Part shown: in pieces, positions 28,091-62,895 of the stretch
Layout of the letters: each line of letters starts with the position of its first letter
Numbering within the stretch: position 1 is the first letter of the stretch
NCBI GenBank assembly: GCA_964601225.1
Contig: CAZRMM010000006.1
Span: forward strand, 20,240 to 84,239
Direction: 5' to 3'
Length of the DNA stretch: 64,000 nucleotides
Origin: an uncultured Candidatus Peribacteria bacterium
Lineage (GTDB): Bacteria; Patescibacteriota; Gracilibacteria; Peribacterales; Peribacteraceae
The notes under the pieces: generated by a model
Databases searched by the model: none
What the model was told of the DNA's origin: nothing
The model's input: only the letters and a program-made list of their open reading frames with translations
Made by a program: the position numbers and the translations under genes

Positions 28091-28135
28091 AAAAAACCCC
28101 GCTGCCGACTTCCGGAGAAGACAGTGCGAGCGGGG
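28091..28135 (-). terminator. intrinsic terminator
   Basis: The minus strand reads CCCCGCT..(inner GTCTTC/GAAGTC pairing)..AGCGGGG followed by TTTTTT. The stem arms are 28097..28103 and 28129..28135, and the run is 28091..28096. Confidence 0.65.
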
Positions 28136-28520: not shown

Positions 28521-28526
28521 CTCATA

Positions 28527-28555
28527 AGTATAGCAGAAATTCTCCATTTTTACAA
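28527..28555 (-). promoter_or_regulatory. promoter TTGTAA-17nt-(TGC)TATACT
   Basis: On the minus strand, TTGTAA is at 28555..28550 and TATACT at 28532..28527, preceded by TGC. The spacer is exactly 17 nt. Confidence 0.65.
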
Positions 28556-46411: not shown

Positions 46412-46534
46412 GAGAAAAACCGAAAGCGCCATGCCCATCCCGCAGAACCATATCCTTCCCGTGAGGAAGAGAGTGACAATGGAAGATTGGGATTGCGCAA
46501 CCGCAACATCGTAGGAAAAGAGCACGAATTTGAC

Positions 46535-46568
46535 GCTCTTTCCATGCGTTTTTGCATCGCAAAAGGAG
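46535..46568 (+). promoter_or_regulatory. possible SD-sequestering leader hairpin upstream of yhhQ
   Basis: GCTCTTTCC (46535..46543) can pair with AAAGGAG (46562..46568, the only strong SD seen in the window). This encloses the inner hairpin ATGC-GTTTTT-GCAT (46544..46557). Confidence 0.35.
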
Positions 46569-46574
46569 AAATGA

Positions 46575-47276: not shown

Positions 47277-47327
47277 AAACCGGCAGCGATACTTGGGGGA
47301 GATTCGTTTTTAAAAAATCGACTTTTG

Positions 47328-47336
47328 TGCTACAAT
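47328..47336 (+). promoter_or_regulatory. extended -10 element TGCTACAAT (followed by AAGAG)
   Basis: ttttgTGCTACAATAAGAG lies 20 nt upstream of ATG 47357. Confidence 0.6.
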
Positions 47337-47356
47337 AAGAGCAAATACCCATATTT

Positions 47357-48934
47357 ATGAAGGCGCCACAAACCTCCCGGCAATTCTCTATTCTTGCCTG
47401 GGGAATTTTTGTTCTGTGCATCGCCGCGACAATTCTGTGCGGGGCCATCGTCCGACGCTCCGAGAACGAATCCGCACAATTTGCCTTCACCTCAAAAGTG
47501 GATGTCGTTTTGCAGACGATCGCCAACCGAATGATCGACTATGAATCCGTGCTGAACGGGGTCAAAGGACTTTACTTGGCATCGAAATCCGTCGAGAGGG
47601 ATGAATTTGCAAGCTACCTGTCCTCGCTGCAACTTTCCCGCAGACTTCCAGGCATCCAGGCGATCGGCTACAGCGAATTCGTCGGATCAAAGGAAAATCT
47701 CAAGGCATTTGAGGAATCCGTACGGGCCGAGGGGTTTTCCAATTTTGTCGTCACGCCGGAAAATGATCGCAATGAATACCATTCCATCAGATTCATAGAA
47801 CCGTTTGACGAACGCAATCGGCGCGCCTTCGGCTTCGACATGCATACGGAAAGCACACGCGCCGCCGCGATGGATCGAGCGCGCGACACGGGAGTCGCAA
47901 TCCTATCGGGCAAAGTCACGCTCAAGCAGGAAAACAACTCACAACCCCAGGCGGGAACGCTCCTCTATTTACCCATCTACCGCAAGGGAGAGCCCGTCGA
48001 TACGCCGGAACAGCGTCGTGCCGCTTTCCAGGGATTCGCCTATGCGGCTTTCAGAATGGAAGATTTGTTCACGGCGATTCTGAGCACGGTCGACACCTCG
48101 TACATCGATCTCGAAATTTATTCCGTAACGGGAAAAAACGGGGAGGAGGATCTCCTATACACAAATGAAGACCCCGAGGAAAAAGAATCATACCTTCCCG
48201 AAATCGCAGGAACGCATACGCTGCGTATCGGAGGGCAATCATGGTCCGTCCGTTATCACACATCGAAAGAATTCGACAGGTCGCACTCTCATCTCAGCTC
48301 AATCATCGCTTGGGCATCCGGAACTGTCGTCAGTATTCTGGTTTTTACGATTGCCATGCTCCTCAGCTTGGCAAAAGAAACAGCAGAGGGCCGGGCACAA
48401 AAGATTGCGCAGGAAATGGCAAAGAACGAGGACACGTGGAAACTCGCGATGGAGGCGAGCGGCGATGCCGTGTGGGAATGGAATCTCTTAAGCAATCAAT
48501 GGAGGAACAGCGAGCGCGGCGCCCGCATGCTCGGATACAATCCGGGCGAATTGAAAGATGACGAGCTTGCGTGGCCGAAAGTGGTGCATCCCGACGATTT
48601 TGCAAAAATCACGACGGAACGAGAGCGTCACATCCAAAACCAAAACGAGATTTTCTTCTGCGAAGTACGCATGCGCTGCAAAGAAGGGAATTATAAGTGG
48701 GTCTCTCTTCGAGGAAGGGTGGTGGTGCGCTCGGCAAACGATAGGCCCGTACGCATGATCGGCACCACGACCGATATCACAGAACGAAAAGCATACGAAG
48801 AAAATCTTCAAGAGAAGAATGCGGAACTTGAGCGCATGAACGAGTTGATGGTCGGTCGCGAACTGAAAATGCGTGATATGAAAGATGAATTGAAAAAATT
48901 ACGCGGCTCTACGGACGATTCCGCGTCGTCATAA
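47357..48934 (+). CDS. sensor protein: CHASE - TM - PAS - coiled coil, no output domain
   Basis: The CHASE-like region is LPGIQAIGYSEFV...YHSIRFIEPFDERNRRAFGFDM...RARDTGVAILSGKVTL...LLYLPIY. The PAS region is WEWNLLSNQW...VHPDD...YKWVSLRGRVV. The C-terminus ELERMNELMVGRELKMRDMKDELKKLR is near-identical in pattern to that of 45143..46411. Confidence 0.75.
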   Translation: MKAPQTSRQFSILAWGIFVLCIAATILCGAIVRRSENESAQFAFTSKVDVVLQTIANRMIDYESVLNGVKGLYLASKSVERDEFASYLSSLQLSRRLPGIQAIGYSEFVGSKENLKAFEESVRAEGFSNFVVTPENDRNEYHSIRFIEPFDERNRRAFGFDMHTESTRAAAMDRARDTGVAILSGKVTLKQENNSQPQAGTLLYLPIYRKGEPVDTPEQRRAAFQGFAYAAFRMEDLFTAILSTVDTSYIDLEIYSVTGKNGEEDLLYTNEDPEEKESYLPEIAGTHTLRIGGQSWSVRYHTSKEFDRSHSHLSSIIAWASGTVVSILVFTIAMLLSLAKETAEGRAQKIAQEMAKNEDTWKLAMEASGDAVWEWNLLSNQWRNSERGARMLGYNPGELKDDELAWPKVVHPDDFAKITTERERHIQNQNEIFFCEVRMRCKEGNYKWVSLRGRVVVRSANDRPVRMIGTTTDITERKAYEENLQEKNAELERMNELMVGRELKMRDMKDELKKLRGSTDDSASS

Positions 48935-48941
48935 AACCCTC

Positions 48942-51326
48942 ATGGCAAAGACCCTCTCCATTCAGGCCCGACTTATCCTCCTGCTCCTGCCGGCGGTTTT
49001 CGCGATCACGGTCGTTTCCCCCCTCGTGTTTTTCGGCATCGTCGGCACCGCGATCGAAGATTCGAGCATCCGGGAAAATCTTCTCGTTCTTAAAAAAAAC
49101 AGCGAAACCACGAGGCAATTCGTCGAAAGTGACAAGCGCCTCATTTTGGCTCTTCGCGATGTGCCGCCGATTCAAGGAATGATTCGTTCGAGGAAAACGG
49201 GTTTGGACAAGCAGGACAACAGTACGTACGAACAGTGGTCCACGCGATTGTCGCAGATTTTCCGAGCCCATTTGAAAGCGAACAATTCCATTTACCAGTT
49301 GCGAGTCTTCGACGAGAAAGGCAACGAAGAAGTTCATGCGGAGCTTATCGGCGGGCAGATCGTCATCACGCCGCCGAATCTTCTGCAAAACAAAAAGGAT
49401 CGTCCGTACTTTCTCGAGGCGATGCAGCTCTCGAACGACGAACTCTATGTGTCGAGCGTCGAGCTCAATCAGGAGTACGGTAAAATTGAAATGCCGTACG
49501 TCCCGGTCTTGCGCATCGCAACGCCCGTTTTCGACTCAGAGGGGAAAAGAAAGGGCGTGATTATGGGAAACTTTCTCGCCGGCGAGATATTTTCGCCCCT
49601 GCGGGAACAGTCCGCGATCCTGGAAAATTTCGTCGTGGATCACGGGGGATTCTTCGCCCTGCACCCAAACGCAGAAATGGAATTCGGGGCTGACCTCAAA
49701 AAGCCAGAAGCGACAATCGTCAACGAATTCCCGACACTCGCCCCGCTGATTCGGAAATCGAAAAACGGAAACTATTACGATCAGGGCACCGAGCGCGAAT
49801 TCCTGTGGGAGACCATCAAATACGGACCGAATGCCGAACAAACATGGACCGTCATTTCCTCCATAGACCGAATGGCTCTGGTCGCCCCGATACAGCGGCT
49901 GAGAAGCATCATCATCGCGGTATCGACGATGCTTGCCTTTTCGATCATCGGTCTTATCGCCTACTCGGCGCACAATCTTTCCTCGCCTATTCGTCATCTC
50001 ACGAAGGCCGTAAGCGCCGTCGCAGCCGGAAAAATTGACACGGTCATTCAGGAAAATGCGAACACGGCGGAAATGGCGGAGCTCAATCAGGGATTTAAAA
50101 AAATGCAAAACGCACTCAATCAAACATATACGGACATGGAGGGGAGAATTCAAGAAAGAACGAAAGACGTCGCCTATGCCCTTGCGAAACAGAAGCAATC
50201 CAATCTGGCAATGCTGAACATCATGGAGGACCTGGAGAATGCAAAAACTCAATTGCAGAACGAGGCGACGGAGACGAAAAAATTCCAGAACGCCGTGGAG
50301 GGCTCGACGGACGCAATCGCCATTACAAGCATCGAAGGAAAGATCGTTTTCGTCAACAGAGCCTTCGAAATACTGACGGGATACAGCTCGGAAGAAGTCG
50401 TCGGAAAAAATCCCAAGATTCTCCGGAGCAACCAAACAAAAGAGGAGACCTACAGCCAAATGTGGAAGGCAATTCTTGAAGGGAAGGTTTTCGCCACGGA
50501 TGATATAGTCAACAAACGAAAGGACGGTACGCTCTACAATGCAGAACTGACCGTCTTCCCGGTACTCAAGAACAACAAGCCCATCTACTTCGTGGGCGTG
50601 CAACGGGACATCACACAACGAAAGAATGAGGATCGGGTGAAATCCGAGTTTATTTCTCTGGCTTCGCATCAATTACGAACGCCGCTCACGGCCCTGCGCC
50701 TGTCTCTTGAACTTCTGTCGAAGGGCCGTTTCGGTCCTCTCACGGAGGAACAGGAGAATATTGTCCAGAGCGGTCTCCGATACGCTGTGGCGCTGGCAGA
50801 GACAATCCACACCATGCTCTCGATCTCGCGCGTGGAAGTGGGAAAGGCATCCATCGATGCGACTGCAATCCACGTGCAAGAATTCCTACGGGAAATTTCC
50901 AAAGAGCTGTCATACAGCGCTTCGCAAAAATCCCTGCAGGTCGTCGTCGATTGCCCGGAAGACATCGTCATTCATACCGACAAAAACTTCCTGAAAGAAA
51001 TTATCGCGAACCTCACGAGCAACGCGATCCGCTACACGCCCGAGAAGGGCAGGATCGAGATTCGCGCCCTTGTCGTCGAAAATAATTTGAAGATTTCCGT
51101 TCAGGACAACGGCTATGGCATTCCCGCGGAAGCACAAGAACGGATCTTCCAAAAATTCTTCCGGGCAGACAACGCGCAAAAGAAAGTGCCGGACGGAACC
51201 GGCCTCGGTCTGTATCTCGTACAATCGCTGGTCTCAATAATCGGCGGGAGGATCTCCTTCGTCTCCGAGGAAAACAAAGGAACGACCTTCACCCTTTCCC
51301 TCCCCTATTCCCCTTCGCAATCGTGA
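48942..51326 (+). CDS. sensor histidine kinase: Cache-like - TM - HAMP - PAS - HisKA - HATPase
   Basis: The H-box is SEFISLASHQLRTPL, the N-box is LTSNAIRYTP and the G-boxes are VQDNGYGIP and GTGLGLYLV. No response regulator is present in the window. Confidence 0.85.
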   Translation: MAKTLSIQARLILLLLPAVFAITVVSPLVFFGIVGTAIEDSSIRENLLVLKKNSETTRQFVESDKRLILALRDVPPIQGMIRSRKTGLDKQDNSTYEQWSTRLSQIFRAHLKANNSIYQLRVFDEKGNEEVHAELIGGQIVITPPNLLQNKKDRPYFLEAMQLSNDELYVSSVELNQEYGKIEMPYVPVLRIATPVFDSEGKRKGVIMGNFLAGEIFSPLREQSAILENFVVDHGGFFALHPNAEMEFGADLKKPEATIVNEFPTLAPLIRKSKNGNYYDQGTEREFLWETIKYGPNAEQTWTVISSIDRMALVAPIQRLRSIIIAVSTMLAFSIIGLIAYSAHNLSSPIRHLTKAVSAVAAGKIDTVIQENANTAEMAELNQGFKKMQNALNQTYTDMEGRIQERTKDVAYALAKQKQSNLAMLNIMEDLENAKTQLQNEATETKKFQNAVEGSTDAIAITSIEGKIVFVNRAFEILTGYSSEEVVGKNPKILRSNQTKEETYSQMWKAILEGKVFATDDIVNKRKDGTLYNAELTVFPVLKNNKPIYFVGVQRDITQRKNEDRVKSEFISLASHQLRTPLTALRLSLELLSKGRFGPLTEEQENIVQSGLRYAVALAETIHTMLSISRVEVGKASIDATAIHVQEFLREISKELSYSASQKSLQVVVDCPEDIVIHTDKNFLKEIIANLTSNAIRYTPEKGRIEIRALVVENNLKISVQDNGYGIPAEAQERIFQKFFRADNAQKKVPDGTGLGLYLVQSLVSIIGGRISFVSEENKGTTFTLSLPYSPSQS

Positions 51327-51643
51327 CAAAGATTCCCGTTGCGGGGGATGAAGAACGTATTGGAAAGCTTTACGCTTTCTCGATCCTCCGATGTCCGACA
51401 TGAACGAATGAGGGACTCGTCCGGCTCAAGAGCGAAGAATTCGGAGCCATCGATTTCATTGTAAAAAGTGATACAGGGAAGCGATCTTGGGGTGAAAATC
51501 CGGGAATATTTCAATTCCCGTCAATCAGTGACTCCAAACTGCGGAATCATCTCCGCCACCGAGAGTACTTGTCTGTTCGTCAGAAGAATTTTTTTGAACA
51601 CAAAATTTGATCATAGTTTTTCCCATTTTCGGCTGAGATCTTC

Positions 51644-51675
51644 AAAAAAAGGACGACCGTGGTCGTCCCTTTTTT
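51644..51675. terminator. bidirectional intrinsic terminator
   Basis: The sequence is AAAAAAA-GGACGAC-cgtg-GTCGTCC-c-TTTTTT. It lies 21 nt after the hcp-like stop on the minus strand and 318 nt after the kinase stop on the plus strand. Confidence 0.75.
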
Positions 51676-51696
51676 AGTCATGAAACACTTAGACAA

Positions 51697-52284
51697 TTAC
51701 TTCTTGGCGGCCTTGAGATCGTAGGTGGCCTTGATTGCAGTGTCCAAACTACCGTCACTCTTTTGCGGACTGTATGAAAATTCGATTTTCGTGAAATTCA
51801 AACTGAGCGACTCCATCGGACGATCGGAGCCACTCTGAGTCATTAGAGAAGAAACCATGACATCCGCGAGTGTTACCTGATAGTACTCCTGGCCAGAAGA
51901 ATTTTTGCAGCTCAGTTTTGCTGACTTCATGTGCGTCCCGGAGACGGCATTCAGAAAGAGCTGAGGAGAAGTTTTATCGATGCGCTTCGTCACCATGAAA
52001 CTAATATCGCTCATCGAAACTTTTCCTGCTCCCATGCCGCTGCTGCCAACGGATGTAGCATTCGACATTCCCCAGCTGAAAGACTGGACTTCGATTGAAC
52101 CGGTGGCGTTTTCCCCTTGGACGCCATCGAGCCAAAGAGTGCAGCCCGGCATGGAAGTTGCCATGGAAGTGGGCGAGATCGTTTTCGCGGTTGTTCTCGT
52201 AGATTGCGCCAATGCCGTCGAGGCGCCGAAGAGAGCCGCAACCACGCCCGCGGAAAGCAGGAGGAATGATGTTCGTTGTTTCAT
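51697..52284 (-). CDS. hcp: Hcp-family (T6SS tube / phage tail-tube fold) protein with N-terminal Sec signal peptide
   Basis: LWLDGVQGENATGSIEVQSFSWGMSN...GMGAGKVSMSDISFMVTKRIDKTSPQLFLNAVSGTHMKSAKLSC...YYQVTLADVMVSSL...ESLSLNFTKIEFSYSPQKSDGS aligns by eye along the whole length with Hcp1-type proteins. The preceding MKQRTSFLLLSAGVVAALFGASTALAQS is a canonical signal peptide. I start at ATG 52284. Confidence 0.8.
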   Translation of the reverse strand: MKQRTSFLLLSAGVVAALFGASTALAQSTRTTAKTISPTSMATSMPGCTLWLDGVQGENATGSIEVQSFSWGMSNATSVGSSGMGAGKVSMSDISFMVTKRIDKTSPQLFLNAVSGTHMKSAKLSCKNSSGQEYYQVTLADVMVSSLMTQSGSDRPMESLSLNFTKIEFSYSPQKSDGSLDTAIKATYDLKAAKK

Positions 52285-52966: not shown

Positions 52967-53070
52967 AAACACGCCTCTTTTTCAAAAATCCCGCACCGTT
53001 CGATGCGGGATTTTTTGATGCGGTTGCGCGACGTTGCCTCAAGAACGGGCGCATGGGTAGAATGGATCCC

Positions 53071-54114
53071 ATGATTGCTTCCGCCCGCAGATTCGCTTCC
53101 TTCTTTTTTCTCGCGCTCGTTTTCGTAACGACGGTTCCCGCCGCGACCGCGCAGGGAATGTCCTTCAAGGACCTGCCGACATCGCACTCCGCCTACGCCG
53201 CGGTGCAGTACCTCACGGGCCTCGGCATCCTCAAGGGGTACGACGACGGCACGTTCCGCCCCGACAAGAAGGTGGCGCGGTCCGAAGCGATCAAGATCAT
53301 CGTGAGCGCCGTGGCCCAGGGGAAGACCTTCACGCCCGGAACTTCTTCCTACACCGATATCCCCGACGGCGCGTGGTACGAGCCGTACGTGGCATACGCC
53401 TGGAAGGAGCTCGGCATCGTCGACGGCCCGCCGACCGCCACCCTTTTCCGGGGAGACAAGAACGTCACGAAGGTGGAGTTTTTGAAGATGCTCCTGCTCG
53501 CGTACAAGGTGGATCCGAAGTCGTTTGGCGAGATCCAATTGCCGCTCGCGAGCGACGTGACGGATCCGGGCGCCTGGTACTACCCCTACATGCGCTACGC
53601 GATCACCGCGTCGATGACCACCGTGCAATCCGACGGCGCCATGGGTCCGAGCCAGGAACTCAGCCGCGCGCAAGTGGCGCTCCTCCTGCACCGCTTCCTC
53701 ACCTACCGCGACGGCCGCCGCACGCAGGCGCTCCTCTCCTCCACGGAAAGCGATCTCGTGAACGTACTCAAGATGCTCGAGGCGAAGGATCTGTCGCAGG
53801 CCGAATACGCGTCGGCGCGCGCGCTGCTCGCCGCCCGCGGCGCGCTGCAATCGAAGCCGGACACGCCGCTCGTGCAAGGCGCGCTCAAGACGACGGAAGC
53901 CTTCCGCGCGCTGGTGCGCGCGTACCGCGCCGGCTCGGAACAGCGCTTCGACGACGCGGTGACGCTCGCCAAGGAATCCTGGTCGCTTGCCGAGGCGGCG
54001 CGCCAGAAGAGCTCCGATCTCGACGGCCTCTCGTCGCAGGTGCAGGGACTCGCGAAGGAAATGGCCGACAGCGCGCGCGACCTCAAGACGAAGTCTGCGA
54101 TGCCGACACCCTAA
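53071..54114 (+). CDS. secreted protein with three S-layer-homology (SLH) domains and a helical C-terminal region
   Basis: It has a signal peptide. The three SLH units are FKDLPTSHSAYAAVQYLTGLGILKGYDDGTFRPDKKVARSEAIKII, YTDIPDGAWYEPYVAYAWKELGIVDG and ASDVTDPGAWYYPYMRYAI...LSRAQVALLLHRFL. The start could be 53053, 53062 or 53071. Confidence 0.75.
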   Translation: MIASARRFASFFFLALVFVTTVPAATAQGMSFKDLPTSHSAYAAVQYLTGLGILKGYDDGTFRPDKKVARSEAIKIIVSAVAQGKTFTPGTSSYTDIPDGAWYEPYVAYAWKELGIVDGPPTATLFRGDKNVTKVEFLKMLLLAYKVDPKSFGEIQLPLASDVTDPGAWYYPYMRYAITASMTTVQSDGAMGPSQELSRAQVALLLHRFLTYRDGRRTQALLSSTESDLVNVLKMLEAKDLSQAEYASARALLAARGALQSKPDTPLVQGALKTTEAFRALVRAYRAGSEQRFDDAVTLAKESWSLAEAARQKSSDLDGLSSQVQGLAKEMADSARDLKTKSAMPTP

Positions 54115-55071: not shown

Positions 55072-55371
55072 TTAGAAGAACGAGTAGACGCGGACTTCGC
55101 CGCGGCCTCCCGCGCCTCCCGCGCCGCCCGTGTTCGTCCCGCCTCCGCCGCCGCCTCCGCCGCCGCCAAGCGCGCCGCCCGCGCCTCCCGCGCAACCGGT
55201 ACTGTCCGTATCGGACCCGCCGCCGCCGCCTCCCGTGCCGTTCTTCGTGGAATTGCCCGCGGTGCCGGCGGTACCGACGGTACACGTTGCGCTACTGGTA
55301 CCGGCAGCGCCTCCGCCCGCCGTTGAGTAACCGTTCACCTTGCCACCCGCACCGGCAGTTTTACGCGGCAT
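55072..55371 (-). other. out-of-frame 3' continuation of the glycine-rich domain of 55361..57262 (frameshift or indel)
   Basis: The frame offset by one nucleotute is not the case here to be clear: the frame offset by one nucleotide encodes ...KTAGAGGKVNGYSTAGGGAAGT...GGGGGGGGGGTNTGGAGGAGGRGEVRVYSFF*. This continues the Gly-rich domain after the in-frame TAA at 55363..55361. C5 and C6 homopolymers lie at about 55396..55410. Confidence 0.55.
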
Positions 55372-57262
55372 TTCCTGTCGTGATGCCGCCGCCGCCCCCG
55401 CCTCCCCCCGCGCCGTAGAGCGAACCGCCACCGGTGCCGGCCGCGCCCGGCGTTGCGCTGGAACCGTTCCCACCGCCGCCACCGTACTCGGCCTGACCGT
55501 TGTTGGTGCCGATATTGCCGCCGCCGCCCTGGCCAGAGACACCGTTGGCTCCGGCGGTTGCCGCGGGCAATCCGCCAAGGTTGGTTGCAGCCGCACCGTT
55601 GGAACCGGCGCCGCCGGTACCGCCTCCGCCCCCGCCTGCCGAAATCGCCGCGGCAACGCCGCCCTTTCCGTATCCCCCACCGTAACACGTGAGATAGGTA
55701 CCGAACGACGAGTTGCCGCCCGCGGTTCCGTTGGATCCGGAGGCACCGGCGTTACCGTTTCCGCCCGTGCCACCCGTGCCGACCGTGACGCTTTCCGTAG
55801 CACTAAGATCGCTCGCAGTGAACCACATGTCGCCCCTCGCCCCTCCCCCTCCGCCTCCGCCTCCGATGCGTGCCGTGCCGGCAGCGCCACCCGTACCACC
55901 GCCTCCTCCACCGCCCGCACCCACGCAGATGACATACACGGCCTTGGCACCCGTGGGTTTGGTCCAGGTACCGTTGCCCGTGAACGTCTGCACGTCGACG
56001 CTTTCGGTGGTATAGGCGGTCTCCACCCAATCCGTGCCGTCGTACATGAGAGTAAGTGCCTTCTTTGCCGTGATCTCGCGCAAGGTCGTGCCGAGCTGGA
56101 GGTTGGAACTACCGAGAGTATCCTGGTCCTGGAGGATTACTTTGTTCGTCTCAGCGTTATCGGCGACAATCGTGACTGTTTGACCGGCCACGCCGTCGGC
56201 GATCGTGGGCGTCGAGGTAAGCGTCACGTTGCCCGTGGGATCGATCTTCACGACCCCGGCATTCGCCAAAATGGAGTTGCCAGCGGCGCTGATCGTCTGC
56301 GTCGCGGAGGGCTTGAGAGTCACTGTGCCGCGGACGACGAGAGAACCGGAGCTCTCAAGCGAATCCATTGCGCGGAGGATGCGACCGGAGGAAACACCGA
56401 CCACTTCGAGAGTAGCATCCGGCGCGGCGGTGCCGATGCCGAAGCGATTGTTGGTGGCGTCGAACACCACGGAGTTGCCGTCGAGCACGAACGTGTTTCC
56501 CGAGGTCCCGGTGACGTTGAGCGTCGCGCCCGAGAGGTTGCCCGTCGCGCGGATGTTGCCGGTGACAGAGACGTTCTTGCTGAACTCGAAGCGTTGGTTG
56601 GCGTGCGAATACGTGATCGCCTGGGCAAGCGTGGCGTTGCCGAAGGTGAGCACCGCGTCGGTGGCGCCGTTGTCGCTGTTGAGGGTGAGATCGCCGTTCG
56701 TGAGGATCGTGCCCGACGCGTTGATGCCGCCGGCATTGCGGATGGTAAGCGTGCCCGTCATCGTGTCGCCGGACGTGTTCACGTAGCGAGCGTCGGCATC
56801 CGTCTGGCTGATGCCGCTGCCGGCGCCGCCCTGGTCGCTGCCGCAGGAGAAGCGCTGCGTGGCGCTGTCCCAGAGAAGCTTGTCGTTGGTGCCGTTGCTG
56901 CAACCGGTGAGGCCGGCTCCGGAGAACGCGCGCTGGACATAGAGAGCGTTGCCGGACATGGACCCCGTGACGCCGAGGCTGCCCTGGACGTAAAGCGGGG
57001 CATCGAATTGAAAACGGGAAGTGGTGCGAACGTACGTAAGATTCTTATTGAGAGTACCTCCGAACTTCACGGAGATGTTGGACGAAGAATCCGTGTCGTC
57101 GATCGTTTGGAACGCCTCGGTGTTCACGAGCAGCGTCGGCGCCCACGCGCTCGTCGCAAACGCGGGTGTATGAACCGAAAACGCGAACGCGAGCACGAGC
57201 ATCGCGCGTACCAGGGAGCGACGGGCGCGAGAACTGCCGGGAATGACTTCAGACACGGACAT
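55361..57262 (-). CDS. secreted tail-fibre-like protein A: shared N-module, beta-helix-like repeats, glycine-rich C-terminal domain (interrupted)
   Basis: It has a signal peptide. WAPTLLVNTEAFQTIDD...FGGTLNKNLTYVRTTSRFQFD and DAVLTFGNATLAQAITYSHANQRFEFSKNVSVTGNIRATGNLSG are shared with genes B and C. The C-terminus VQTFTGNGTWTKPTGAKAVYVICVGAGGGGGGG... is a glycine-rich domain. Confidence 0.75.
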   Translation of the reverse strand: MSVSEVIPGSSRARRSLVRAMLVLAFAFSVHTPAFATSAWAPTLLVNTEAFQTIDDTDSSSNISVKFGGTLNKNLTYVRTTSRFQFDAPLYVQGSLGVTGSMSGNALYVQRAFSGAGLTGCSNGTNDKLLWDSATQRFSCGSDQGGAGSGISQTDADARYVNTSGDTMTGTLTIRNAGGINASGTILTNGDLTLNSDNGATDAVLTFGNATLAQAITYSHANQRFEFSKNVSVTGNIRATGNLSGATLNVTGTSGNTFVLDGNSVVFDATNNRFGIGTAAPDATLEVVGVSSGRILRAMDSLESSGSLVVRGTVTLKPSATQTISAAGNSILANAGVVKIDPTGNVTLTSTPTIADGVAGQTVTIVADNAETNKVILQDQDTLGSSNLQLGTTLREITAKKALTLMYDGTDWVETAYTTESVDVQTFTGNGTWTKPTGAKAVYVICVGAGGGGGGGTGGAAGTARIGGGGGGGGARGDMWFTASDLSATESVTVGTGGTGGNGNAGASGSNGTAGGNSSFGTYLTCYGGGYGKGGVAAAISAGGGGGGTGGAGSNGAAATNLGGLPAATAGANGVSGQGGGGNIGTNNGQAEYGGGGGNGSSATPGAAGTGGGSLYGAGGGGGGGGITTGNAA

Positions 57263-57270
57263 TTCCTCTT

Positions 57271-57279
57271 ATTATAGCA
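57271..57279 (-). promoter_or_regulatory. extended -10 element TGCTATAAT, 8 nt from ATG 57262 (leaderless)
   Basis: The minus strand reads tttttGCTATAATaagaggaaATG. Confidence 0.6.
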
Positions 57280-57323
57280 AAAATATCGCCATCTTGCCAC
57301 GCGGCGTCCTTGCGAAAAACCAG

Positions 57324-57349
57324 AAAACATCGTCAAAAAAAACGGGCAC
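57324..57349 (-). terminator. intrinsic terminator after fibre gene B
   Basis: The minus strand reads CGGGCAC-ttcg-GTGCCCG followed by TTTTTTTT. Confidence 0.75.
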
Positions 57350-57384
57350 CGAAGTGCCCGTTCGGATTCAAGGAAAGAGGTTCA

Positions 57385-58749
57385 TCACGGGGTCGTGGTC
57401 GACCAGTTGACGTTGATGTAGCCGGCATCGGAGTAGCCCGTGCTGGTGCTGGCGAGCTTCACGAGGATCGTAATGAATCCGTCGGGAGTATAGGTGCCGC
57501 TCGAGACGTTCGTGAGCGTCGCCGTGGCCCATGTGTTAGACGATCCGCTGGCGAGCGCGGCGCCGCCGGAAGTGGCGACGAGGGCACCCGTCGTGTCGAG
57601 AAGCTTGATCGTCAGGTAGTTCGCGGCGGTCGACGTGGAGCTTGTGCGGTAGCGGAATTGGATCGGGGTGGGCGTCCAGTTGTTGAAGTTCTTCGGCACC
57701 TTCACGCGCACGGCGATCCAGTAATCCTGCATCGTTCCTTGCGACGAGGTCCAACGATAGAAGTTTTCTTTGTTCGTGCTGTCGTAGCTATACGTGAGCG
57801 TGCCGACGTTCGCCGAGGAACCGGATGCGGTATAGACGGCGTTCGGATACTCGGGATGGAGCGAGAGCGAGCCGCCGGAACCGTTGGCGGTGGACGTCGT
57901 GGACCATGTGAGGTTGCCCGCGCCGTCGTTTTTCAGGTAGGTGTTGGCCGAACCCTGCGAGGTCGGAGCGGAGTACGTCACCCCCTTGAGCGTGAGGTTT
58001 CCGTCCACGGTGAGCGTGGAACCGGAGAGGTTGCCCGAGGCGCGGATGTTACCCGTGACCTTCACGTCCTTGCTGAACTCGAAACGCTGGTTAGTGTGCG
58101 AGAACTTCACGGTCTGCGCCGAGGTCTGGTTGCCGAAGGTGAGGGTGGCGTCGTTCGTATCGTTGTCGCCGTTGATGGTGAGGTTGGACTTCGTCGTGAT
58201 GGCCCCAGTGGCAGAAAGTGTGCCGTTGACGATGGCCGTGCCGTCCACGTTAAGAGTAGAACCGGAGAGGTTGCCGCGGACCTTGGTGTTGCCCGTGATG
58301 GTGGCAGCGCCGGTGATCGACGTGTTACCCGTGATCGTGGTGGCGCCGTTCACGGTCGCCGTGCCGTCGACGTTAAGAGTGGAACCGGAGAGGTTGCCAC
58401 GGACCTTGGTGTCGCCCGTGATGGTGGTAGCGCCGCGGATGTTGGCGGTGCCGTCGATCGAGAGGGTCGAACCGGAGAGGGTGCCGCGGACGCTCACGCT
58501 GTCGTTGAATTCGAAGCGGCTGTTCGTACGGTTATACGTAATGGTCTTATTGAGCGTCTGACCGAACTGGATGTACACGTTGGAAGTACCATTGCCTTCG
58601 TCGATGACCTCGAACGACTCCGTATTGACGAGCAGGGTCGGGTTCCAGGTGGAAACCGCAAGGGCATTTCCCGCAAGGAGGGAAAAAGTGAGCACCGCGG
58701 CAAGTGCGCGAGCCGAGCTCTTGGCGATGGAGGGAAAACGGGTTTCCAT
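57385..58749 (-). CDS. secreted tail-fibre-like protein B (454 aa)
   Basis: It has a signal peptide. The N-module WNPTLLVNTESFEVIDE...FGQTLNKTITYNRTNSRFEFND is present. Repeats GNLSGSTLNVDGTATVNGATTITGNT follow, then the DATLTFGNQTSAQTVKFSHTNQRFEFSKDVKVTGNIRASGNLSG module. The C-terminal ~150 aa domain (NFYRWTSSQGTMQDYW...) is shared with C. Confidence 0.8.
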   Translation of the reverse strand: METRFPSIAKSSARALAAVLTFSLLAGNALAVSTWNPTLLVNTESFEVIDEGNGTSNVYIQFGQTLNKTITYNRTNSRFEFNDSVSVRGTLSGSTLSIDGTANIRGATTITGDTKVRGNLSGSTLNVDGTATVNGATTITGNTSITGAATITGNTKVRGNLSGSTLNVDGTAIVNGTLSATGAITTKSNLTINGDNDTNDATLTFGNQTSAQTVKFSHTNQRFEFSKDVKVTGNIRASGNLSGSTLTVDGNLTLKGVTYSAPTSQGSANTYLKNDGAGNLTWSTTSTANGSGGSLSLHPEYPNAVYTASGSSANVGTLTYSYDSTNKENFYRWTSSQGTMQDYWIAVRVKVPKNFNNWTPTPIQFRYRTSSTSTAANYLTIKLLDTTGALVATSGGAALASGSSNTWATATLTNVSSGTYTPDGFITILVKLASTSTGYSDAGYINVNWSTTTP

Positions 58750-58773
58750 GTGGGTATGGGAGGTAATCGGATA

Positions 58774-58782
58774 AGTATAGCA
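58774..58782 (-). promoter_or_regulatory. extended -10 element TGCTATACT
   Basis: The minus strand reads tagTGCTATACTtat, 24 nt upstream of ATG 58749. The same nonamer plus TAT occurs at the ncRNA promoter (28535..28527). Confidence 0.55.
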
Positions 58783-58787
58783 CTAGA

Positions 58788-60506
58788 TCAGTTTTTCTGC
58801 AACTCGGTGAAGAGGAGCCGAATACTACCGAGATGCACCTGATAATTGTCCTTCGCCGAAACCCTGCACTTGACAATGAACGTGCCGCCCGGCGTCCATG
58901 TGGGTGTTCCACCGAATCCGACGGCCGCATCCGCCCACGTAATAGAGGAGAGACCGCCGTAGGAACCGGTGAGGCTCACGGGCTGGCCGTTCGTGTCGAA
59001 GACCGAGATATCGAGGCGGGCGTCCGACGGCGAAGCCGACGTGCCGCGATACTGGACCGTGATCGGATCATCCCTCCATCCCCGGAATCCTTCCGGCAGC
59101 GTGATGGGAAGAACGACCTCGTAATCCTGCAGTGAACTTTGCGTGCTCGTCCAGAGATAGAAGTTGTGCGCGTTGATCTCGTCGTGGGACACGGAGAGGC
59201 GTCCCACGTTGTCCGTCGCGTCGCCGCGAACGGATGCGCCCGGATACGGCGCGTGATACGAGGTCATCTGCTGGATCTCGCGCAGGTCGCTCTGGAGGGC
59301 GCGCATGTCCTCCACGCCCGTCACCGATCCGCCGGAAGTTGTGACTGTCGCGAGCGGAATATAAGCCTGGTCCGTCGGGAAGCCCGAGGTGGACGACGAG
59401 AGGCCGGACGAGACGAAATAAAGGTACGTGGTCGCGTTATCGCCGACGGCGTAACCGGTGACGCCCGCATACTGCGTCGGAGCGCCGCTGACGCGGTACA
59501 CGCCGGCCGCGACGTTCACCGTGAGGCCGGCGCCGGCCGAAACCTGGAGCGGGGCACTGGAGAGCGACGTGAGATCGACGCCGTTCACCGTTCCGGTGAC
59601 GGTGAGGTTGCCTTCGACGCGGACGTCGGCGGAGAACTCGAAGCGCTCATCGCTCGACGAGTAGCGGAGGGTCTCGGGAAGGATGTCGTTGCCGAAGGTG
59701 ATGACGGCGTCGCGCGCGGCGTTGTCCGCGTTGATGGTAAGATCTCCGCCGGCCGCGACGGAACCCGAGGCGGTGACCGTGCCGTCCACGAACACGTCAG
59801 TGGAGAACTCGAAGCGCTGGTTGGCCTGCGAGAAGGTGATCGTCGCGGGCAGGAGCGAATTGCCGAAGGTGAGCGCTGCGTCGGCGGCGGAGTTGTCTGC
59901 GTTGATCGTGAAGCCGTTCGCGTTCGTACCGTCGCCCATCTGGGCGTCGTTCAGCGTGCCGTCGACGCCGAGGATCACGAGATCGCCGGATCCGGTTCCC
60001 GGCGCGCGGCCGTCGACGTTCTGGGCATTGCGTGCGAACGGAACGGAAGTGATGGGCTTGCGGTCGTCGGTATCGGCGCCGACGTCGCCGGTGGGATCCA
60101 TGAGCTGATAGCTGGTGTCGGGCTGACCCGCGTACTTCACCTCCACCTGGAGGTATTTGTGACGGTTGAAATCGAACGTGGGCAGCGCGACGGCGCCGCC
60201 AAGCAGCACGTTCGCGACGCCGTTTTGCGGGGTGACCGTCTGCGCTTCGGACCAGCCGCCGTAGGTCGCGGAGCCCGTGTTGATGGAACCGCCCGACGCG
60301 TCACCGGAGACCCAGTCGCCCGAGGACCACAGCGAGAAGCGCAGCTCGATCGGCACGGTGACGGGATTGTCGCTCGCGTCGAGGAAACGGCCGGTGTACG
60401 TCAGCGTCGTCGGCGTGCCGCCGGCGACGGCGACGGGCATGGCGATGTTTGCCATGAGCAAGCTCAGGAGGGAGAGCAGGCCGATGCGGGCGACGAGGCG
60501 GCGCAT
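58788..60506 (-). CDS. secreted tail-fibre-like protein C (572 aa)
   Basis: I start at ATG 60506 (MRRLVARIGLLSLLSLLMANIAMP, a signal peptide). The N-domain YTGRFLDASDNPVTVPIELRFSLW...WSEAQTVTPQNGVANVLLG...YLQVEV...ITSVPFARNA is the pattern seen at the N-termini of many phage tail-fibre-like proteins. Two ..TFGN..RFEFS.. modules follow. The C-terminal domain (NFYLWTSTQSSLQDYE...) is shared with B. Confidence 0.8.
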   Translation of the reverse strand: MRRLVARIGLLSLLSLLMANIAMPVAVAGGTPTTLTYTGRFLDASDNPVTVPIELRFSLWSSGDWVSGDASGGSINTGSATYGGWSEAQTVTPQNGVANVLLGGAVALPTFDFNRHKYLQVEVKYAGQPDTSYQLMDPTGDVGADTDDRKPITSVPFARNAQNVDGRAPGTGSGDLVILGVDGTLNDAQMGDGTNANGFTINADNSAADAALTFGNSLLPATITFSQANQRFEFSTDVFVDGTVTASGSVAAGGDLTINADNAARDAVITFGNDILPETLRYSSSDERFEFSADVRVEGNLTVTGTVNGVDLTSLSSAPLQVSAGAGLTVNVAAGVYRVSGAPTQYAGVTGYAVGDNATTYLYFVSSGLSSSTSGFPTDQAYIPLATVTTSGGSVTGVEDMRALQSDLREIQQMTSYHAPYPGASVRGDATDNVGRLSVSHDEINAHNFYLWTSTQSSLQDYEVVLPITLPEGFRGWRDDPITVQYRGTSASPSDARLDISVFDTNGQPVSLTGSYGGLSSITWADAAVGFGGTPTWTPGGTFIVKCRVSAKDNYQVHLGSIRLLFTELQKN

Positions 60507-60507
60507 G

Positions 60508-61014
60508 TCAGGCAAGAGACGGATCGGCGTCGGAAGAAAGCAAGGAAAAGGAAGCGTCGGCGGGCGCATCATCGGCGGGCGCGGGCTCGCGGTCCGCGCG
60601 GGCGGCGCGCTTGCGACGATGGGCGGGGGTGTCGGCGAAGAAGAATCCCTCCCGGGCGATCACGCGACCGACGGTGGAGGCGGACGCATCGATCCCCTCA
60701 CCCGCAAGCAAGCGGCTGATCTCCTCCTTGCCCATGAGCGGATGCGCGCGGCGAAGAGCGCCGATGCGCGCAACCGTGGCGGGCGCGGTCTCCGGGCGGC
60801 GCACGGAAAGCGGCCGACGCGAATGCTCCTCGAGCGACGACGGATCGTCGGGGCGGAAGCGATCGAGCCAGCGCACGAGCGTGGAACGAGCGATGCCGAA
60901 GTAGCGGCACGTGAGTGAGACGTTCTCGCCGTGCTGGTGGAAGTACTCGAACCACCGCAAACGCAGCACCGCGGCGGCACTGAGTTCCAGCTCCTCGGCT
61001 TGTTTGAGGAGCAT
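60508..61014 (-). CDS. HTH-only protein resembling the N-terminal DNA-binding region of IS481-type transposases (no DDE domain)
   Basis: VSLTCRYFGIARSTLVRWLDRF...LEEHSRRPLSVRRPETAPATVARIGALRRAHPLMGKEEISRLLAGEGIDASASTVGRVIAREGF matches the HTH plus winged-helix N-terminus pattern. It is 168 aa starting at the internal ATG 61014. The stop at 60510..60508 lies 1 nt before the fibre C ATG. Confidence 0.65.
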   Translation of the reverse strand: MLLKQAEELELSAAAVLRLRWFEYFHQHGENVSLTCRYFGIARSTLVRWLDRFRPDDPSSLEEHSRRPLSVRRPETAPATVARIGALRRAHPLMGKEEISRLLAGEGIDASASTVGRVIAREGFFFADTPAHRRKRAARADREPAPADDAPADASFSLLSSDADPSLA

Positions 61015-61119: not shown

Positions 61120-61735
61120 GAGACACGGAATGATGTATATGAACTTTCGGCGCATTTTCGACAAAGCTGTCGCAAAATCGAAAAGCAATATGAAGTGTAT
61201 CTCTCTGAACTTTTCGCATCGAAAAAAGAATTTTCCTTCGTAAAAAAGGGTTGCGAGCCGCATGGCGCGCTCTCTCTGAGCTTTCGATCCGAAGGGGATG
61301 TGCCCGCGGATGCTCGCGATGAACTTTTCAGGAAGCCTGTCGACGCGCACTTTGGAGATCGGCCTCCGCGGGACGTCGCACGATACGAAAACCAAAATGG
61401 AGCGGATCTCCTTGAACTTTACTTTTCTGAATGCAACCGATCGATCCACAGATCGATCGATCAGCGGGAACATTCGGCTGAGTCATCCTAAAAATCGGCA
61501 GGGAGAAGGGCTCAACTGCCTCATGTTGTCCGGATGTTTTTTGGGGGAAAATATGGAGCGATTGTCTGCGAACTTTCCTCGTATTTCAGGGCTCTTCGAA
61601 TAGATGAGATGAAAATGACCGCGCAAAAGCAATGACCGGGCGGGGTCTCGCCCCGCGATTCCGAGAGAAAAGTCCGCAGACAACCGGGCACGCCCTCCTT
61701 GTATCGATTCTCCGTGAACTTTCTGCGGGAATCAG
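61120..61735 (+). repeat. six direct copies of a degenerate ~27-nt repeat with invariant GAACTTT core
   Basis: GAACTTT occurs at 61141, 61207, 61321, 61414, 61570 and 61716, all on the plus strand. Copies 2, 4, 5 and 6 share AAyATGrAGyG.ATyTCTC..GAACTTT. Spacing is irregular (66 to 156 nt). Confidence 0.75.
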
Positions 61736-62895
61736 CGCTTCGCAGTTTTGCGCGTGCGTCGGCGGCGCGGCCAGAACGGCACGAGGAGGGAGACCGGAAC
61801 CCCGCCTGGACGCAGGGCTCCCAAAGCACTGAGGGCCTCCGCAGGCGAAACGTAGGCGGGGATGGTTCCGTAGAAGGCCTCGACGCGGTACACCCATCCC
61901 AGACGCGCAACGATGCCGAGCTCGGCCATGGTCATGCCTCCCATCGTCACGCTGCCGACAGTCGACGAACCGGAAAGCACGCTCGCGGCCAGTGATTCAA
62001 AACGCCCGTTTTCCGACGGAGAAGGTGCGGGGGGAATATCGGGCGGCGTTCCCGGGAGTGGCGAAGATCCGCCGGACTCCGACGCATCCAAGGACGACGC
62101 GGAAGATGCAGATGCCGATTCGACACCCTCCATCGACGACGAGGACGAAGCCCGCGACGGCTCGGACGCAGCCGGATGCGTTACCGGGCGCGGTGACGGC
62201 GGGACGGGTGTGACGGAAGGCGCGGACGAGGGCGGCGATGCGGAAGAATACGCGGCGTCGTGCGTCGGCGCGGAAGACGACGGGGCCGCTGCGGAGGAAC
62301 CCGACGCTCCTTCGGAAGAACGGTGTGAGCCGCCAGAACCGGCGCCTGTTTCGCCGCTCCCCTCGCCCGACGTCGCGGACTCATCGCGCGTGCACGACGA
62401 GGTGTCGTATGTGCAATTGCTGCGGCAACCGAGGCTGCCCCCCGCGAAGCCGAGCGTCGTGCAACTCGCGGAACCGCGGTCGGATGCGTCGCACTGTTCG
62501 TCGCCCTCCTTGACCCCGTTCCCGCAGAGCGGCAGCACTCCTTCGGCAGCGGGAAAATCTGCATGAAAAACCGGAGACGTTCCCGTCAACACCGACCCAT
62601 CGAGCGAATCGCGATCGATATGAATGGATTGCGCGCTCGCGCCGGCGCTCGTTACGAGCGCAACGACGGAACACAGCACGGTCAACCGCAGCCGGCGACG
62701 GGTGTTTGGTGTGTATGTAATCGGATCATTGTACAGAAAAACACCCTTTTTCTCAATGCACTCCTCCGTAGGAAGGAATGGAAAAATGGAAAGTTTTTTA
62801 GACAAAAATGCACGAAGTAACACCCGAAGGAATTTGTCTGCTCTGGAGACGGGATCGGAAGCCGTTTTTTTGCTACAATGAAACGATGCACACAA
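61732..62895 (-). CDS. secreted protein: Cys-rich CGNG-type repeat, Ser/Ala/Pro-rich low-complexity region, C-terminal hydrophobic + Arg-rich tail
   Basis: CGNGVKEGDEQCDASDRGSASCTTLGFAGGSLGCRSNCTYDTSSC resembles the myxococcal-type cysteine-rich repeat. The tail is GGVPVSLLVPFWPRRRRTRKTAKR. The true start is probably downstream of the CTGTACAAT -10 element at 62736..62728 (a non-ATG start before TVLCSVVALVTSAGASAQS), so the 5' end is uncertain. Confidence 0.6.
   Translation of the reverse strand: MCASFHCSKKTASDPVSRADKFLRVLLRAFLSKKLSIFPFLPTEECIEKKGVFLYNDPITYTPNTRRRLRLTVLCSVVALVTSAGASAQSIHIDRDSLDGSVLTGTSPVFHADFPAAEGVLPLCGNGVKEGDEQCDASDRGSASCTTLGFAGGSLGCRSNCTYDTSSCTRDESATSGEGSGETGAGSGGSHRSSEGASGSSAAAPSSSAPTHDAAYSSASPPSSAPSVTPVPPSPRPVTHPAASEPSRASSSSSMEGVESASASSASSLDASESGGSSPLPGTPPDIPPAPSPSENGRFESLAASVLSGSSTVGSVTMGGMTMAELGIVARLGWVYRVEAFYGTIPAYVSPAEALSALGALRPGGVPVSLLVPFWPRRRRTRKTAKR
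62871..62879 (+). promoter_or_regulatory. extended -10 element TGCTACAAT, 6 nt from ATG 62886 (leaderless)
   Basis: The sequence reads tttttTTGCTACAATgaaacgATG. Confidence 0.6.

Follow-up and report, generated by a model that had tools for sequence, protein, structure and literature searches.

A vertically inherited locus of predicted phage-tail-fibre-like mosaic surface proteins in Candidatus Peribacteria

A stretch of 64,000 nucleotides (contig CAZRMM010000006.1 of assembly GCA_964601225.1, from an uncultured Candidatus Peribacteria bacterium; the whole stretch is referred to below as the window) carries three consecutive minus-strand open reading frames (ORFs), here called C, B and A in their 5' to 3' order, over positions 55072-60572. 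An initial annotation, made from the sequence alone, had placed the same three ORFs at 55072-60506 and described them as paralogs of secreted fibre-like proteins that share a set of modules. Its upper end turned out to be the likely ATG of C, and its lower end is right because a stop codon is reached there in the +1 frame past a frameshift in A. The three genes are laid out as follows, with lengths in amino acids (aa).

58788..60506, minus strand: gene C, 572 aa from the ATG at 60506 in an ORF that stays open to 60572 (594-aa ORF); signal peptide, N-domain, two FGN modules, mid-domain and C-terminal domain (CTD)
57385..58749, minus strand: gene B, 454 aa; signal peptide, N-module, hexapeptide-like beta-helix stalk, FGN module, 'Blink' motif and CTD
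55072..57262, minus strand: gene A, 633 aa as assembled (ORF 55361..57262) and 729 aa after removal of the frameshift; signal peptide, N-module, linker with a Cys-loop and 'DARYVNTSGDTMTG', FGN module, mid-domain and Gly_rich_2 domain

Each of the three proteins starts with a basic n-region, followed by a hydrophobic core of 12 aa (score 2.3-2.4) and, just ahead of the conserved module, an AxA-type site; AlphaFold2 (AF2) modelled an N-terminal helix in B and C. By these features A, B and C are predicted to be exported by Sec, with the signal peptides then removed.

Pairwise BLASTP with composition adjustment showed that A, B and C are true modular paralogs, as had been proposed. A matched B with 41% identity over 254 aa (E 2e-41), B matched C with 31% identity over 314 aa running through the whole CTD (E 4e-38), and the ~45-aa modules of A and C matched each other at E 1e-13 and 5e-11. 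Six copies of the core FG...RF[EQ]F were located (A 67-86 and 207-227; B 62-81 and 205-225; C 236-256 and 293-313, in the numbering of the 594-aa ORF). Motif positions and BLASTP alignments bear out the FGN module claimed for A and B and, in two copies, for C; the N-terminal module common to A and B and the CTD common to B and C were likewise recovered by BLASTP. A point absent from the initial annotation emerged from secondary BLAST alignments and a MAFFT alignment, namely that the N-module of A and B is itself a diverged FGN copy, so that the three module classes reduce to one repeated module plus protein-specific domains. At the DNA level the internal FGN modules form a 188-nucleotide repeat with four copies.

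56514-56701: copy in A, taken as the reference
58007-58194: copy in B, 74% identical to the A copy
59566-59753 and 59737-59924: two copies in C, 61% identical to the A copy

A hidden Markov model of the module found no further FGN copies in the window. Each FGN module was modelled by AF2 as a three-stranded meander. Low-complexity coincidence was considered as an explanation of the shared motifs and is ruled out by the composition-adjusted E-values, by the DNA-level repeat, and by the conservation of the modules at orthologous positions in dozens of genomes.

Gene B contains the following parts, all on the minus strand.

58492..58653: N-module, residues 33-86, W.PTLLVNTE.F...FG.TLNK..TY.R..SRFEF, directly after the signal peptide
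58195..58491: stalk, residues 87-185, a Thr/Gly/Asn-rich hexapeptide-like repeat
57994..58194: FGN module, residues 186-252
57862..57993: Blink motif, residues 253-296, GVTYSAPTSQGSANTYLKNDGAGNLTW
57388..57861: CTD, residues 297-454, predicted jelly roll

Across the B family the N-module and Blink are the best-conserved parts (59% and 60% mean pairwise identity, respectively), and the stalk is the most variable region (43% identity, 27% gaps) as well as the most variable in length. The stalk of B holds a tandem duplication of 41 aa, of which two 96-nucleotide copies (58222-58317 and 58345-58440, spaced by 123 nucleotides) are 90% identical, indicating that this repeat was gained recently. It gave a YdcK-type match, a match to a tail fibre in the PDB (9cuy_g, E 6e-4) and a weak match to the PHROG family phrog_4549. 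The Pfam family Bactofilin (PF04519) also matched B, with 30.2 bits against a cut-off of 27.9 and over residues 109-206 only, while C stayed below the cut-off with 16 bits. The AF2 monomer model of B has a mean predicted local distance difference test score (pLDDT) of 82, reaching 91-97 over CTD residues 321-440; its stalk scores 77-91 and contains no strands as assigned by DSSP. The models of B and C rest on alignments of 77 and 31 homologues, respectively. We retrieved 262 homologues of B; the source-named ones are hypothetical proteins of Peribacteria or Peregrinibacteria, and several are named 'cytoskeletal protein CcmA' by JGI.

Gene C contains the following parts, again on the minus strand.

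59952..60419: N-domain, residues 30-185, beta-rich, directly after the signal peptide
59571..59951: tandem FGN modules, residues 186-245 and 246-312, LTFGN...RFEFS
59262..59570: mid-domain, residues 313-415, pLDDT about 80-90
58791..59261: CTD, predicted jelly roll, paralogous to the CTD of B, pLDDT >90

A protein identical to the 572-aa C product is present in public data (P0234), and orthologues align over nearly their full length with 38-53% identity. The AF2 model of C (mean pLDDT 75) is confident in the N-domain, mid-domain and CTD; within the N-domain, the score is 84-95 for residues 41-140 and declines towards 150. The initial annotation had called this a tail-fibre-type N-domain; it matched no Pfam or PHROG family, and the label stands for a resemblance only. 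Indeed, C as a whole gave no Pfam match above cut-off and no PHROG match. A profile of the N-domain retrieved 1099 representative proteins at E<=1e-3, of which 256 reached E<=1e-30 and the best 150 all had E<=1e-45, and the domain was found to head giant mosaics such as P0290 (1939 aa; LVIVD repeats, weak C1q-like match) and P0306 (1012 aa). The mid-domain profile matched the 'Long tail fiber' 8kec_A in the PDB at E 1e-6.

Gene A, on the same strand, is built from the parts below.

56987..57154: N-module, residues 37-92 (BLASTP, MAFFT)
56708..56986: linker, residues 93-185, with a Cys-bounded loop (CSNGTNDKLLWDSATQRFSC) and the motif DARYVNTSGDTMTGTL
56507..56707: FGN module, residues 186-252
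55988..56506: mid-domain, residues 253-425
55075..55987: Gly_rich_2 domain, residues 426-729, split by the frameshift at ~55363

The linker type of A recurs in other family members, joined there to B-type ends, and the mid-domain is present two to four times in some orthologues. Two PHROG families, phrog_863 ('tail fiber assembly', E 1.6e-18) and phrog_2295, span the mid-domain and the glycine-rich domain together. The latter, noted initially only as glycine-rich, matched Pfam Gly_rich_2 (PF21722) above the cut-off of 24.3 bits, scoring 35.1 bits in A as assembled (model positions 3-206 of 226) and 29.8 bits after frameshift correction (positions 3-220 of 226). By these sequence matches, the tip of A is a bona fide Gly_rich_2 member. 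In a profile search of the PDB, the domain matched 9d93_Qa, 'Tail wing brush, gp33' (E 1.8e-4). The frameshift is a single nucleotide near 55363 (55355-55370, GCCGCG-T-AAAACT), such that the ORF ends in GNAA* and KTAGAGG follows in the +1 frame. Eight public homologues of A (720-744 aa) are colinear across the junction GNAA|KTAGAGG, most of them reading GNAAQTAGAGG, and the homologues share a conserved C-terminus (...GRGE[IV]RV[YF][ST]F[FY]). Two contigs, from NCBI and Logan, carry the truncated 633-aa product (P0121), indicating that the frameshift is not peculiar to one assembly. It is either a real pseudogenisation or truncation or a read-level error.

Transcription signals of the kind described initially, a box TGCTATA(C/A)T directly upstream of each of B and A and a terminator of B, were found at the following positions.

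58774-58782, minus strand: extended -10 promoter-like box TGCTATACT, upstream of B in the 38-nucleotide spacer between C and B
57271-57279, minus strand: extended -10 promoter-like box TGCTATAAT, upstream of A, with a -35-like GTGGCA at a spacing of 18 nucleotides
57363..57340, minus strand: terminator-like hairpin downstream of B, with a 10-bp stem, 6 GC pairs and a T-run

The window contains three matches to TGCTATAMT, where 0.07 would be expected and none of 100 shuffles gave more than one. Both boxes are putative promoters by consensus match, and the hairpin resembles an intrinsic terminator. The box of A scores 10/12 as a sigma-70-type promoter with TG extension, and because its end lies 8 nucleotides before the ATG, the mRNA of A is suggested to be leaderless or nearly so. 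The 24-nucleotide spacer before B (58749-58782 region) contains CCTCCC, which is anti-Shine-Dalgarno-like, instead of a Shine-Dalgarno sequence. Translation initiation at A and B may be unconventional.

Structure comparison with phage receptor-binding proteins, which the initial annotation had suggested as a check, was carried out with Foldseek and matched the CTD to the C-terminal domains of tailspikes and fibres. For B, the matches were the K2-2 tailspike (8iqe/8iq9, E 1e-4), Kp7 gp52 (7xyc) and CBA120 TSP4 (5w6h) together with the carbohydrate-binding module (CBM) families CBM61, CBM35, CBM4 and CBM11; for C, they were CBM61 (2xom, E 1.3e-5, target-normalised TM-score 0.56-0.59) and the Klebsiella phage K2-2 tailspike (8iq9). 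CBM22, Cry toxin domain III and Eph ligand-binding domains were matched as well, and the best named matches in BFVD were phage tail fibres, including those of Prochlorococcus phage P-TIM68 and of Klebsiella phages. Given these matches and the AF2 models, the predicted architecture is fibre-like, with a beta-helical stalk and a distal globular domain, in line with the fibre-like label of the initial annotation. Both kinds of distal domain, the CBM-like jelly roll and Gly_rich_2, are also used at the ends of phage tail fibres and tailspikes.

Sequence relationships to viruses were patchy. Blink has a core of about 30 aa (Y.LP...G....VLTNDGSGNLSW) that was matched by 35 ORFs in IMG/VR viral contigs, often repeated along long, stalk-like ORFs. 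Among the segments tested, IMG/VR matches were limited to Blink and one stalk (Bhelix) hit, and the C family had none. In the viral contigs L089 and L090, an ORF at 6795-8792 carries Blink (YTVPTAQGAANTCLTNDGSGNLSW) followed by a Gly_rich_2-type domain. The glycine-rich domain of the L089 ORF starts with QTF..GTWTKP, as that of A does, and is the closest phage-side counterpart of A's distal half. A tblastn search of 50,697 phage genomes returned only four weak stalk matches for B and none for C or for the distal half of A, where the low-complexity filter probably masks the glycine-rich part; full-length relatives were found neither in these genomes nor in IMG/VR. Taken together, A, B and C are mosaics of fibre-type parts, of which Blink, Gly_rich_2, the C mid-domain and the CTD fold are shared with phages, and the N-module, the FGN module, the CTD sequence family and the C N-domain have no detected match outside the family.

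The source-named homologues of A, B and C come from Candidatus Peribacteria, Peribacteraceae, Peregrinibacteria or unclassified Patescibacteria. A scan for the N-module motif T[LV]LVNTE[SA]F in one genome from each of 185,579 species gave 135 loci that were verified by tblastn; the 79 that are listed are nearly all from metagenome-assembled genomes of Peribacteria or Peregrinibacteria, and include four contigs labelled Woesebacteria, Kaiserbacteria or Absconditabacterales and a few more labelled just 'Patescibacteria group' or 'bacterium'. Domains were mapped in 80 loci. C is followed by B on the same strand in 62 of the 80, and in 39 of the 44 loci with at least 1.5 kb of upstream sequence, the gene directly upstream of the C-type gene is divergent and encodes an SLH (S-layer homology) domain. 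By contrast, the other companions are less constant: an A-like third gene is present in 17/80 loci, six of which end in Gly_rich_2, and a beta-lactamase-like gene in 20/80. The order in loci L001 and L004 is a Cys/Ser-rich secreted protein, C, B, A, a convergent beta-lactamase-like gene and the SLH gene, and L003 also has C, B and A. Because C-B synteny, usually with SLH linkage, recurs across about 80 loci, the locus is vertically inherited and class-wide, with SLH, C and B as its core and a variable third gene. The idea of a phage or prophage receptor-binding set does not fit this picture, since C and B form a conserved chromosomal locus among cellular genes.

In the window, the neighbours are PAS/CHASE histidine kinases, a signal-peptide-bearing Hcp-like protein, a DUF1761 protein, the SLH protein, a class-A beta-lactamase-like protein and a 3D/PG-binding protein. 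A scan of ten neighbouring genes revealed no domain of capsid, portal, terminase, tape-measure or baseplate type. Those closest to the subject are the following.

53053..54114, plus strand: SLH-domain protein, 353 aa (Pfam SLH, E 8e-24), beyond A and the beta-lactamase-like gene
60508-61014, minus strand: small HTH_28/HTH_32 gene, transposase-N-terminal-like, in an ORF open to 61473
61732-62895, minus strand: secreted protein with a Cys-rich part (CGNG..E.CD...C...GF..G...C), a Ser-rich part and a hydrophobic C-terminal segment
51697-52371, minus strand: Hcp-like protein (Pfam T6SS_HCP, E 1.8e-27) with an apparent N-terminal signal peptide

By its gene neighbourhood, the SLH protein would be a candidate cell-wall anchor or partner of the three proteins. 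The HTH gene stops one nucleotide before the ATG of C (TGAcATG), and C is probably co-transcribed with it. In two other genomes the gene call joins an HTH region of this kind to the C-type protein (P0256 in L084, and P0285). L001 and L004 have no HTH gene, and the Cys/Ser-rich gene directly precedes C there. The HTH gene could be a locus-associated regulator rather than a remnant of an insertion sequence. Several further genomes have called proteins in which the C N-domain is preceded by a Ser-rich N-terminal extension that contains transmembrane segments (e.g. P0299), and the Cys/Ser-rich protein may serve the fibres as a functional partner or membrane anchor.

Further observations concern parts of the window away from the three genes. 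The Hcp-like protein, apparently exported by Sec, is odd in a genome of the Candidate Phyla Radiation (CPR), and no other type VI secretion gene was found among the ten ORFs scanned around it. It was considered as a conserved part of the locus and dismissed, since the corresponding place in L001 is taken by a 213-aa gene that is not its orthologue. It lies, with the CHASE/PAS and Cache/HAMP histidine-kinase genes, in a segment (46001-52000) whose GC content is 0.49-0.52 against 0.55-0.64 in the rest of the window, and which may have been acquired horizontally. The third exact TGCTATACT box (28527-28535, minus strand) stands before about 470 nucleotides (28060-28535) without a convincing ORF, between the ORFs 26971-28056 and 28677-29309, and is followed by a long hairpin at about 28392-28495. 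No Rfam family was found downstream of this box at E<0.1, sub-threshold matches being of hairpin type only. The 28060-28535 stretch is a candidate for a strongly expressed non-coding RNA or small gene.

The initial annotation further read the three proteins as a family diversifying by module exchange. Part of this stood, in a weak and long-term sense: among 280 retrieved proteins, architectures are combinatorial, with A-type linkers joined to B-type CTDs, one to four FGN modules, and repeated Blink/linker units. Recent exchange in this window, by contrast, was not borne out. The nearest neighbour of an FGN or N-module was the orthologous module in another genome in 241 of 280 cases (B-B 143, C-C 78, A-A 20), including all six modules of the window, and lay in the same genome in 28 of 280, 20 of them B-B and consistent with duplications in the B stalk. 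Recent gene conversion among A, B and C is accordingly unsupported. Identity to the closest genome, L004, is 76% for A, 68% for B, 51% for C, 62% for the beta-lactamase-like protein and 44% for the SLH protein, such that the conservation of A and B equals or exceeds that of the flanking genes. No strain-level relatives were found in the searched databases, the next-best identities being 65% for B, 74% for A and 53% for C. In the closest pair of genomes (L003 and L005), the B N-module is 90-97% identical and the CTD 59-63%, a pattern that fits a conserved proximal dock with a faster-evolving distal end. The distal half of the third gene differs among genomes. We take the family to evolve by duplication and loss of tandem stalk repeats, by occasional reassortment of modules on long timescales, and by replacement of the distal part of the third gene.

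Cellular fibres with comparable features have been described in Bdellovibrio bacteriovorus. Its MAT (mosaic adhesive trimer) fibres combine a signal peptide and a conserved N-domain with an intertwined beta-helical trimer and tips that can be swapped; they are displayed on the surface and bind glycans (Caulton et al. 2024, PMC10769870). Like them, A, B and C are cellular proteins that resemble phage tail fibres, with a predicted signal peptide leading straight into a conserved N-terminal element that appears rich in beta structure, then a beta-helical stalk and C-terminal tips predicted to fold independently; family-wide mosaicism and a bacterium living off other cells are further points in common, and MAT tips include beta-sandwiches and TNF/C1q-like domains. 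The MAT N-domain is beta-rich and about 130 aa long, to be compared with a confident beta-rich region of about 110-150 aa in C and a module of about 55 aa in A and B. A regular-expression search found no MAT capping-loop motif (V-G-G/N-x3-P-x3-L) in A, B or C, and the S74 chaperone/protease (SDxxxK motif, Pfam domain) is absent from all three. The jelly-roll and glycine-rich tips would fit the logic of the 'NS74' fibres, which end in another independently folding tip, but correspond to no specific MAT tip fold. Foldseek comparison with the Bd2133 fibre (8ond) was weak (probability 0.23-0.47, TM-score about 0.1). B and C measure 454-572 aa against about 1000, and there is typically one C-B pair per locus against about 21 dispersed paralogs. 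The tips of B and C are fixed and not swapped, the envelope is Gram-positive-like, and the locus is SLH-linked. We therefore regard A, B and C as possible functional analogues of MAT fibres and not as demonstrable members of that family.

Other known systems share single parts with the three proteins. The CTD fold matches the C-terminal domains of phage tailspikes and fibres (8iq9/8iqe, 7xyc and 5w6h) at E 1e-4 to 6e-5, and the C mid-domain is sequence-homologous to one domain of the cyanophage-type 'Long tail fiber' 8kec (E 1e-6). But A, B and C carry signal peptides, have no virion-attachment domain and no enzymatic beta-helix depolymerase core, and belong to a chromosomal set vertically inherited in a cellular lineage without full-length phage homologues. 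The last 300 aa of A are like phage gp33 (9d93) and PF21722, but in A they are fused to a Peribacteria-specific N-module, an FGN module and a mid-domain. CBM61, CBM35, CBM4, CBM11 and CBM22 are the best or near-best fold matches of the CTD (target-normalised TM-score 0.51-0.59 for CBM61 2xom/2xon), although the likeness stays at the level of the fold, with no Pfam match, 10-13% identity and no attached glycoside hydrolase. The stalk shares a beta-helix repeat of hexapeptide periodicity with bactofilins (PF04519), which by contrast are cytoplasmic polymers without signal peptide or extra domains. Unlike SLH-anchored S-layer or wall proteins, A, B and C have neither SLH nor LPxTG, SLH being found only in the neighbouring gene.

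We favour, with moderate confidence, the interpretation that C and B with the variable A are a vertically inherited Peribacteria set of Sec-exported, phage-tail-fibre-like mosaic surface fibres, probably glycan-binding adhesins. It is grounded in the paralogy and module map, the lineage-wide synteny, the fold assignments, and the promoter and terminator motifs. Export, oligomerisation, anchoring, ligand class and biological role, as we infer them, would run as follows. After Sec export and cleavage of the signal peptide, the proteins would dock to the envelope at their proximal end, through the N-module in A and B and through the beta-rich N-domain of about 130-150 aa in C. Because SLH and LPxTG are absent from A, B and C, the neighbouring SLH protein would be the best candidate for the docking partner, with the Cys/Ser-rich membrane protein as the second. 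A stalk of beta-helical repeats with interspersed three-stranded FGN modules, probably oligomeric, would hold the distal domain off the cell, and the tips, a jelly roll in B and C and a Gly_rich_2 'brush' in A, would bind surface polymers, most plausibly glycans. The role would be adhesion of an episymbiotic bacterium to partner or host cells.

Several results weigh against this interpretation. Foldseek TM-scores normalised to the query are about 0.2, with one domain matching, and the models are AF2 monomers with predicted TM-scores of 0.38-0.43. The CBM-like fold is very common, and a predicted fold of this kind does not prove sugar binding. Neither an SLH domain (Pfam) nor LPxTG was found in A, B or C, so that attachment is purely inferred. 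Across the family the CTD is about as conserved as the rest (B 53%, C 47%), and the tip type of B and C is never swapped across about 80 loci, unlike classic host-range determinants; conservation of the CTD would also fit a conserved 'self' ligand, e.g. the cell's own wall polymer or S-layer. Finally, A is frameshifted here, and the third member may be inactive in this population.

Such a 'self' ligand leads to the main rival, in which B and C are envelope-structural, as S-layer or S-layer-associated components or a surface 'nap' whose CTD binds the cell's own secondary wall polymer or the SLH protein. One C-B pair per locus, near-universal in the lineage, the divergent SLH gene in 39/44 loci, the strong promoter consensus and strong terminator that flank B, a combination typical of abundant structural proteins, and a CTD that is conserved family-wide, not hypervariable, with a fixed tip type would all suit such a role, as would the investment of Peribacteria in envelope polymers and S-layer (PMC4736985). 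However, the domain types are those of fibres and tailspikes and not of known lattice-forming S-layer folds, the stalk varies in length, in the closest genome pair the tip has diverged faster than the N-module, and the tips of some relatives are of adhesin type (LVIVD repeats, a weak C1q match and a C1q annotation from precomputed data), which leaves this role unlikely, though still to be taken seriously. We consider it less probable again that the genes are, in an extension of the initial annotation, an actively diversifying receptor-binding or adhesin family whose three copies keep exchanging modules, as in phage cassette shuffling or gene conversion. The combinatorial architectures, the 28/280 modules nearest within their own genome, the 90%-identical duplication inside the B stalk and the variable distal half of the third gene would be expected from such shuffling, but the 241/280 modules closest to orthologues elsewhere (all six of the window among them), the conservation of A and B as much as or more than their flanks, the constant tip type of B and C in about 80 loci and the lack, in the searched databases, of strain variants closer than 65-74% identity make it improbable.

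Signal peptides without a recognisable anchor motif and a CBM-like, Cry-domain-III-like tip would also suit released, unanchored glycan-binding proteins, serving polysaccharide capture or acting as toxin-like binding components. Library scans of A, B and C detected no catalytic or toxin domain, however, the conserved N-module after the signal peptide looks like a dock, and long repetitive stalks are typical of anchored fibres; we give this reading little credence. Even less likely is an origin of the locus as prophage or tailocin tail-fibre genes or their decaying remnant. The PHROG tail-fibre matches, the structural matches to phage fibres and the HTH_32 transposase-like gene beside C speak for it, but it is already largely refuted: the ten scanned neighbours hold no virion-structure domains, the single tail-tube-like match among them being the signal-peptide-bearing Hcp-like protein at a distance of about 2.7 kb; A, B and C bear signal peptides, a feature that virion proteins lack; and the locus keeps its synteny among cellular genes in about 80 species-level genomes, with no full-length phage relatives. 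As for bactofilin-type cytoskeletal proteins, as in the 'cytoskeletal protein CcmA' annotations, the Pfam match of B (30.2 bits vs 27.9) and the JGI names of homologues point that way, but the match is confined to stalk residues 109-206, C scores 16 bits and so stays under the cut-off, B carries a signal peptide and large additional domains, and generic beta-helix repeats best explain the similarity, so that this reading can practically be set aside.

The Peribacteria genome paper of 2016 described large, often cysteine-rich extracellular proteins and strain variation in them, together with heavy investment in envelope polymers and S-layer genes (PMC4736985). Our literature search found no paper on PF21722, none joining CPR, tail fiber and adhesin, and none describing the present family, which we take to be previously undescribed and lineage-specific; Pfam has no model for its N-module, FGN module, CTD or C N-domain. 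A life spent attached to other cells is assumed for CPR/Patescibacteria. To our knowledge, the hosts and attachment machinery of most CPR lineages, Peribacteria included, are not known. A bolder proposal, which we advance tentatively and hold to be rather doubtful, is that C-B(-A) and the SLH gene form a lineage-defining host-attachment apparatus of Peribacteria, made of domesticated phage-fibre-like proteins and representing an independent CPR counterpart of the Bdellovibrio MAT fibres. On this view the proteins would dock to the wall by the N-module or N-domain, and their CBM-like and glycine-rich tips would recognise surface glycans of the organisms on which these CPR cells live; as the family is near-universal in the class and of a size that can be expressed, tagged CTDs would then offer a direct way to the hosts of Peribacteria.

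The architecture of the three proteins is that used by phages and by Bdellovibrio for cell-surface recognition. If the tips bind foreign glycans, recombinant CTDs, which are about 160 aa long and confidently folded, could be used as probes to find hosts in samples from the environment; should the ligand instead be the wall of the cell itself, the family would be a new kind of SLH-linked envelope fibre. Either outcome would be of use, and neither overturns current ideas. The locus, though no surprise in principle, is a specific and tractable candidate for the machinery by which an uncultured lineage attaches.

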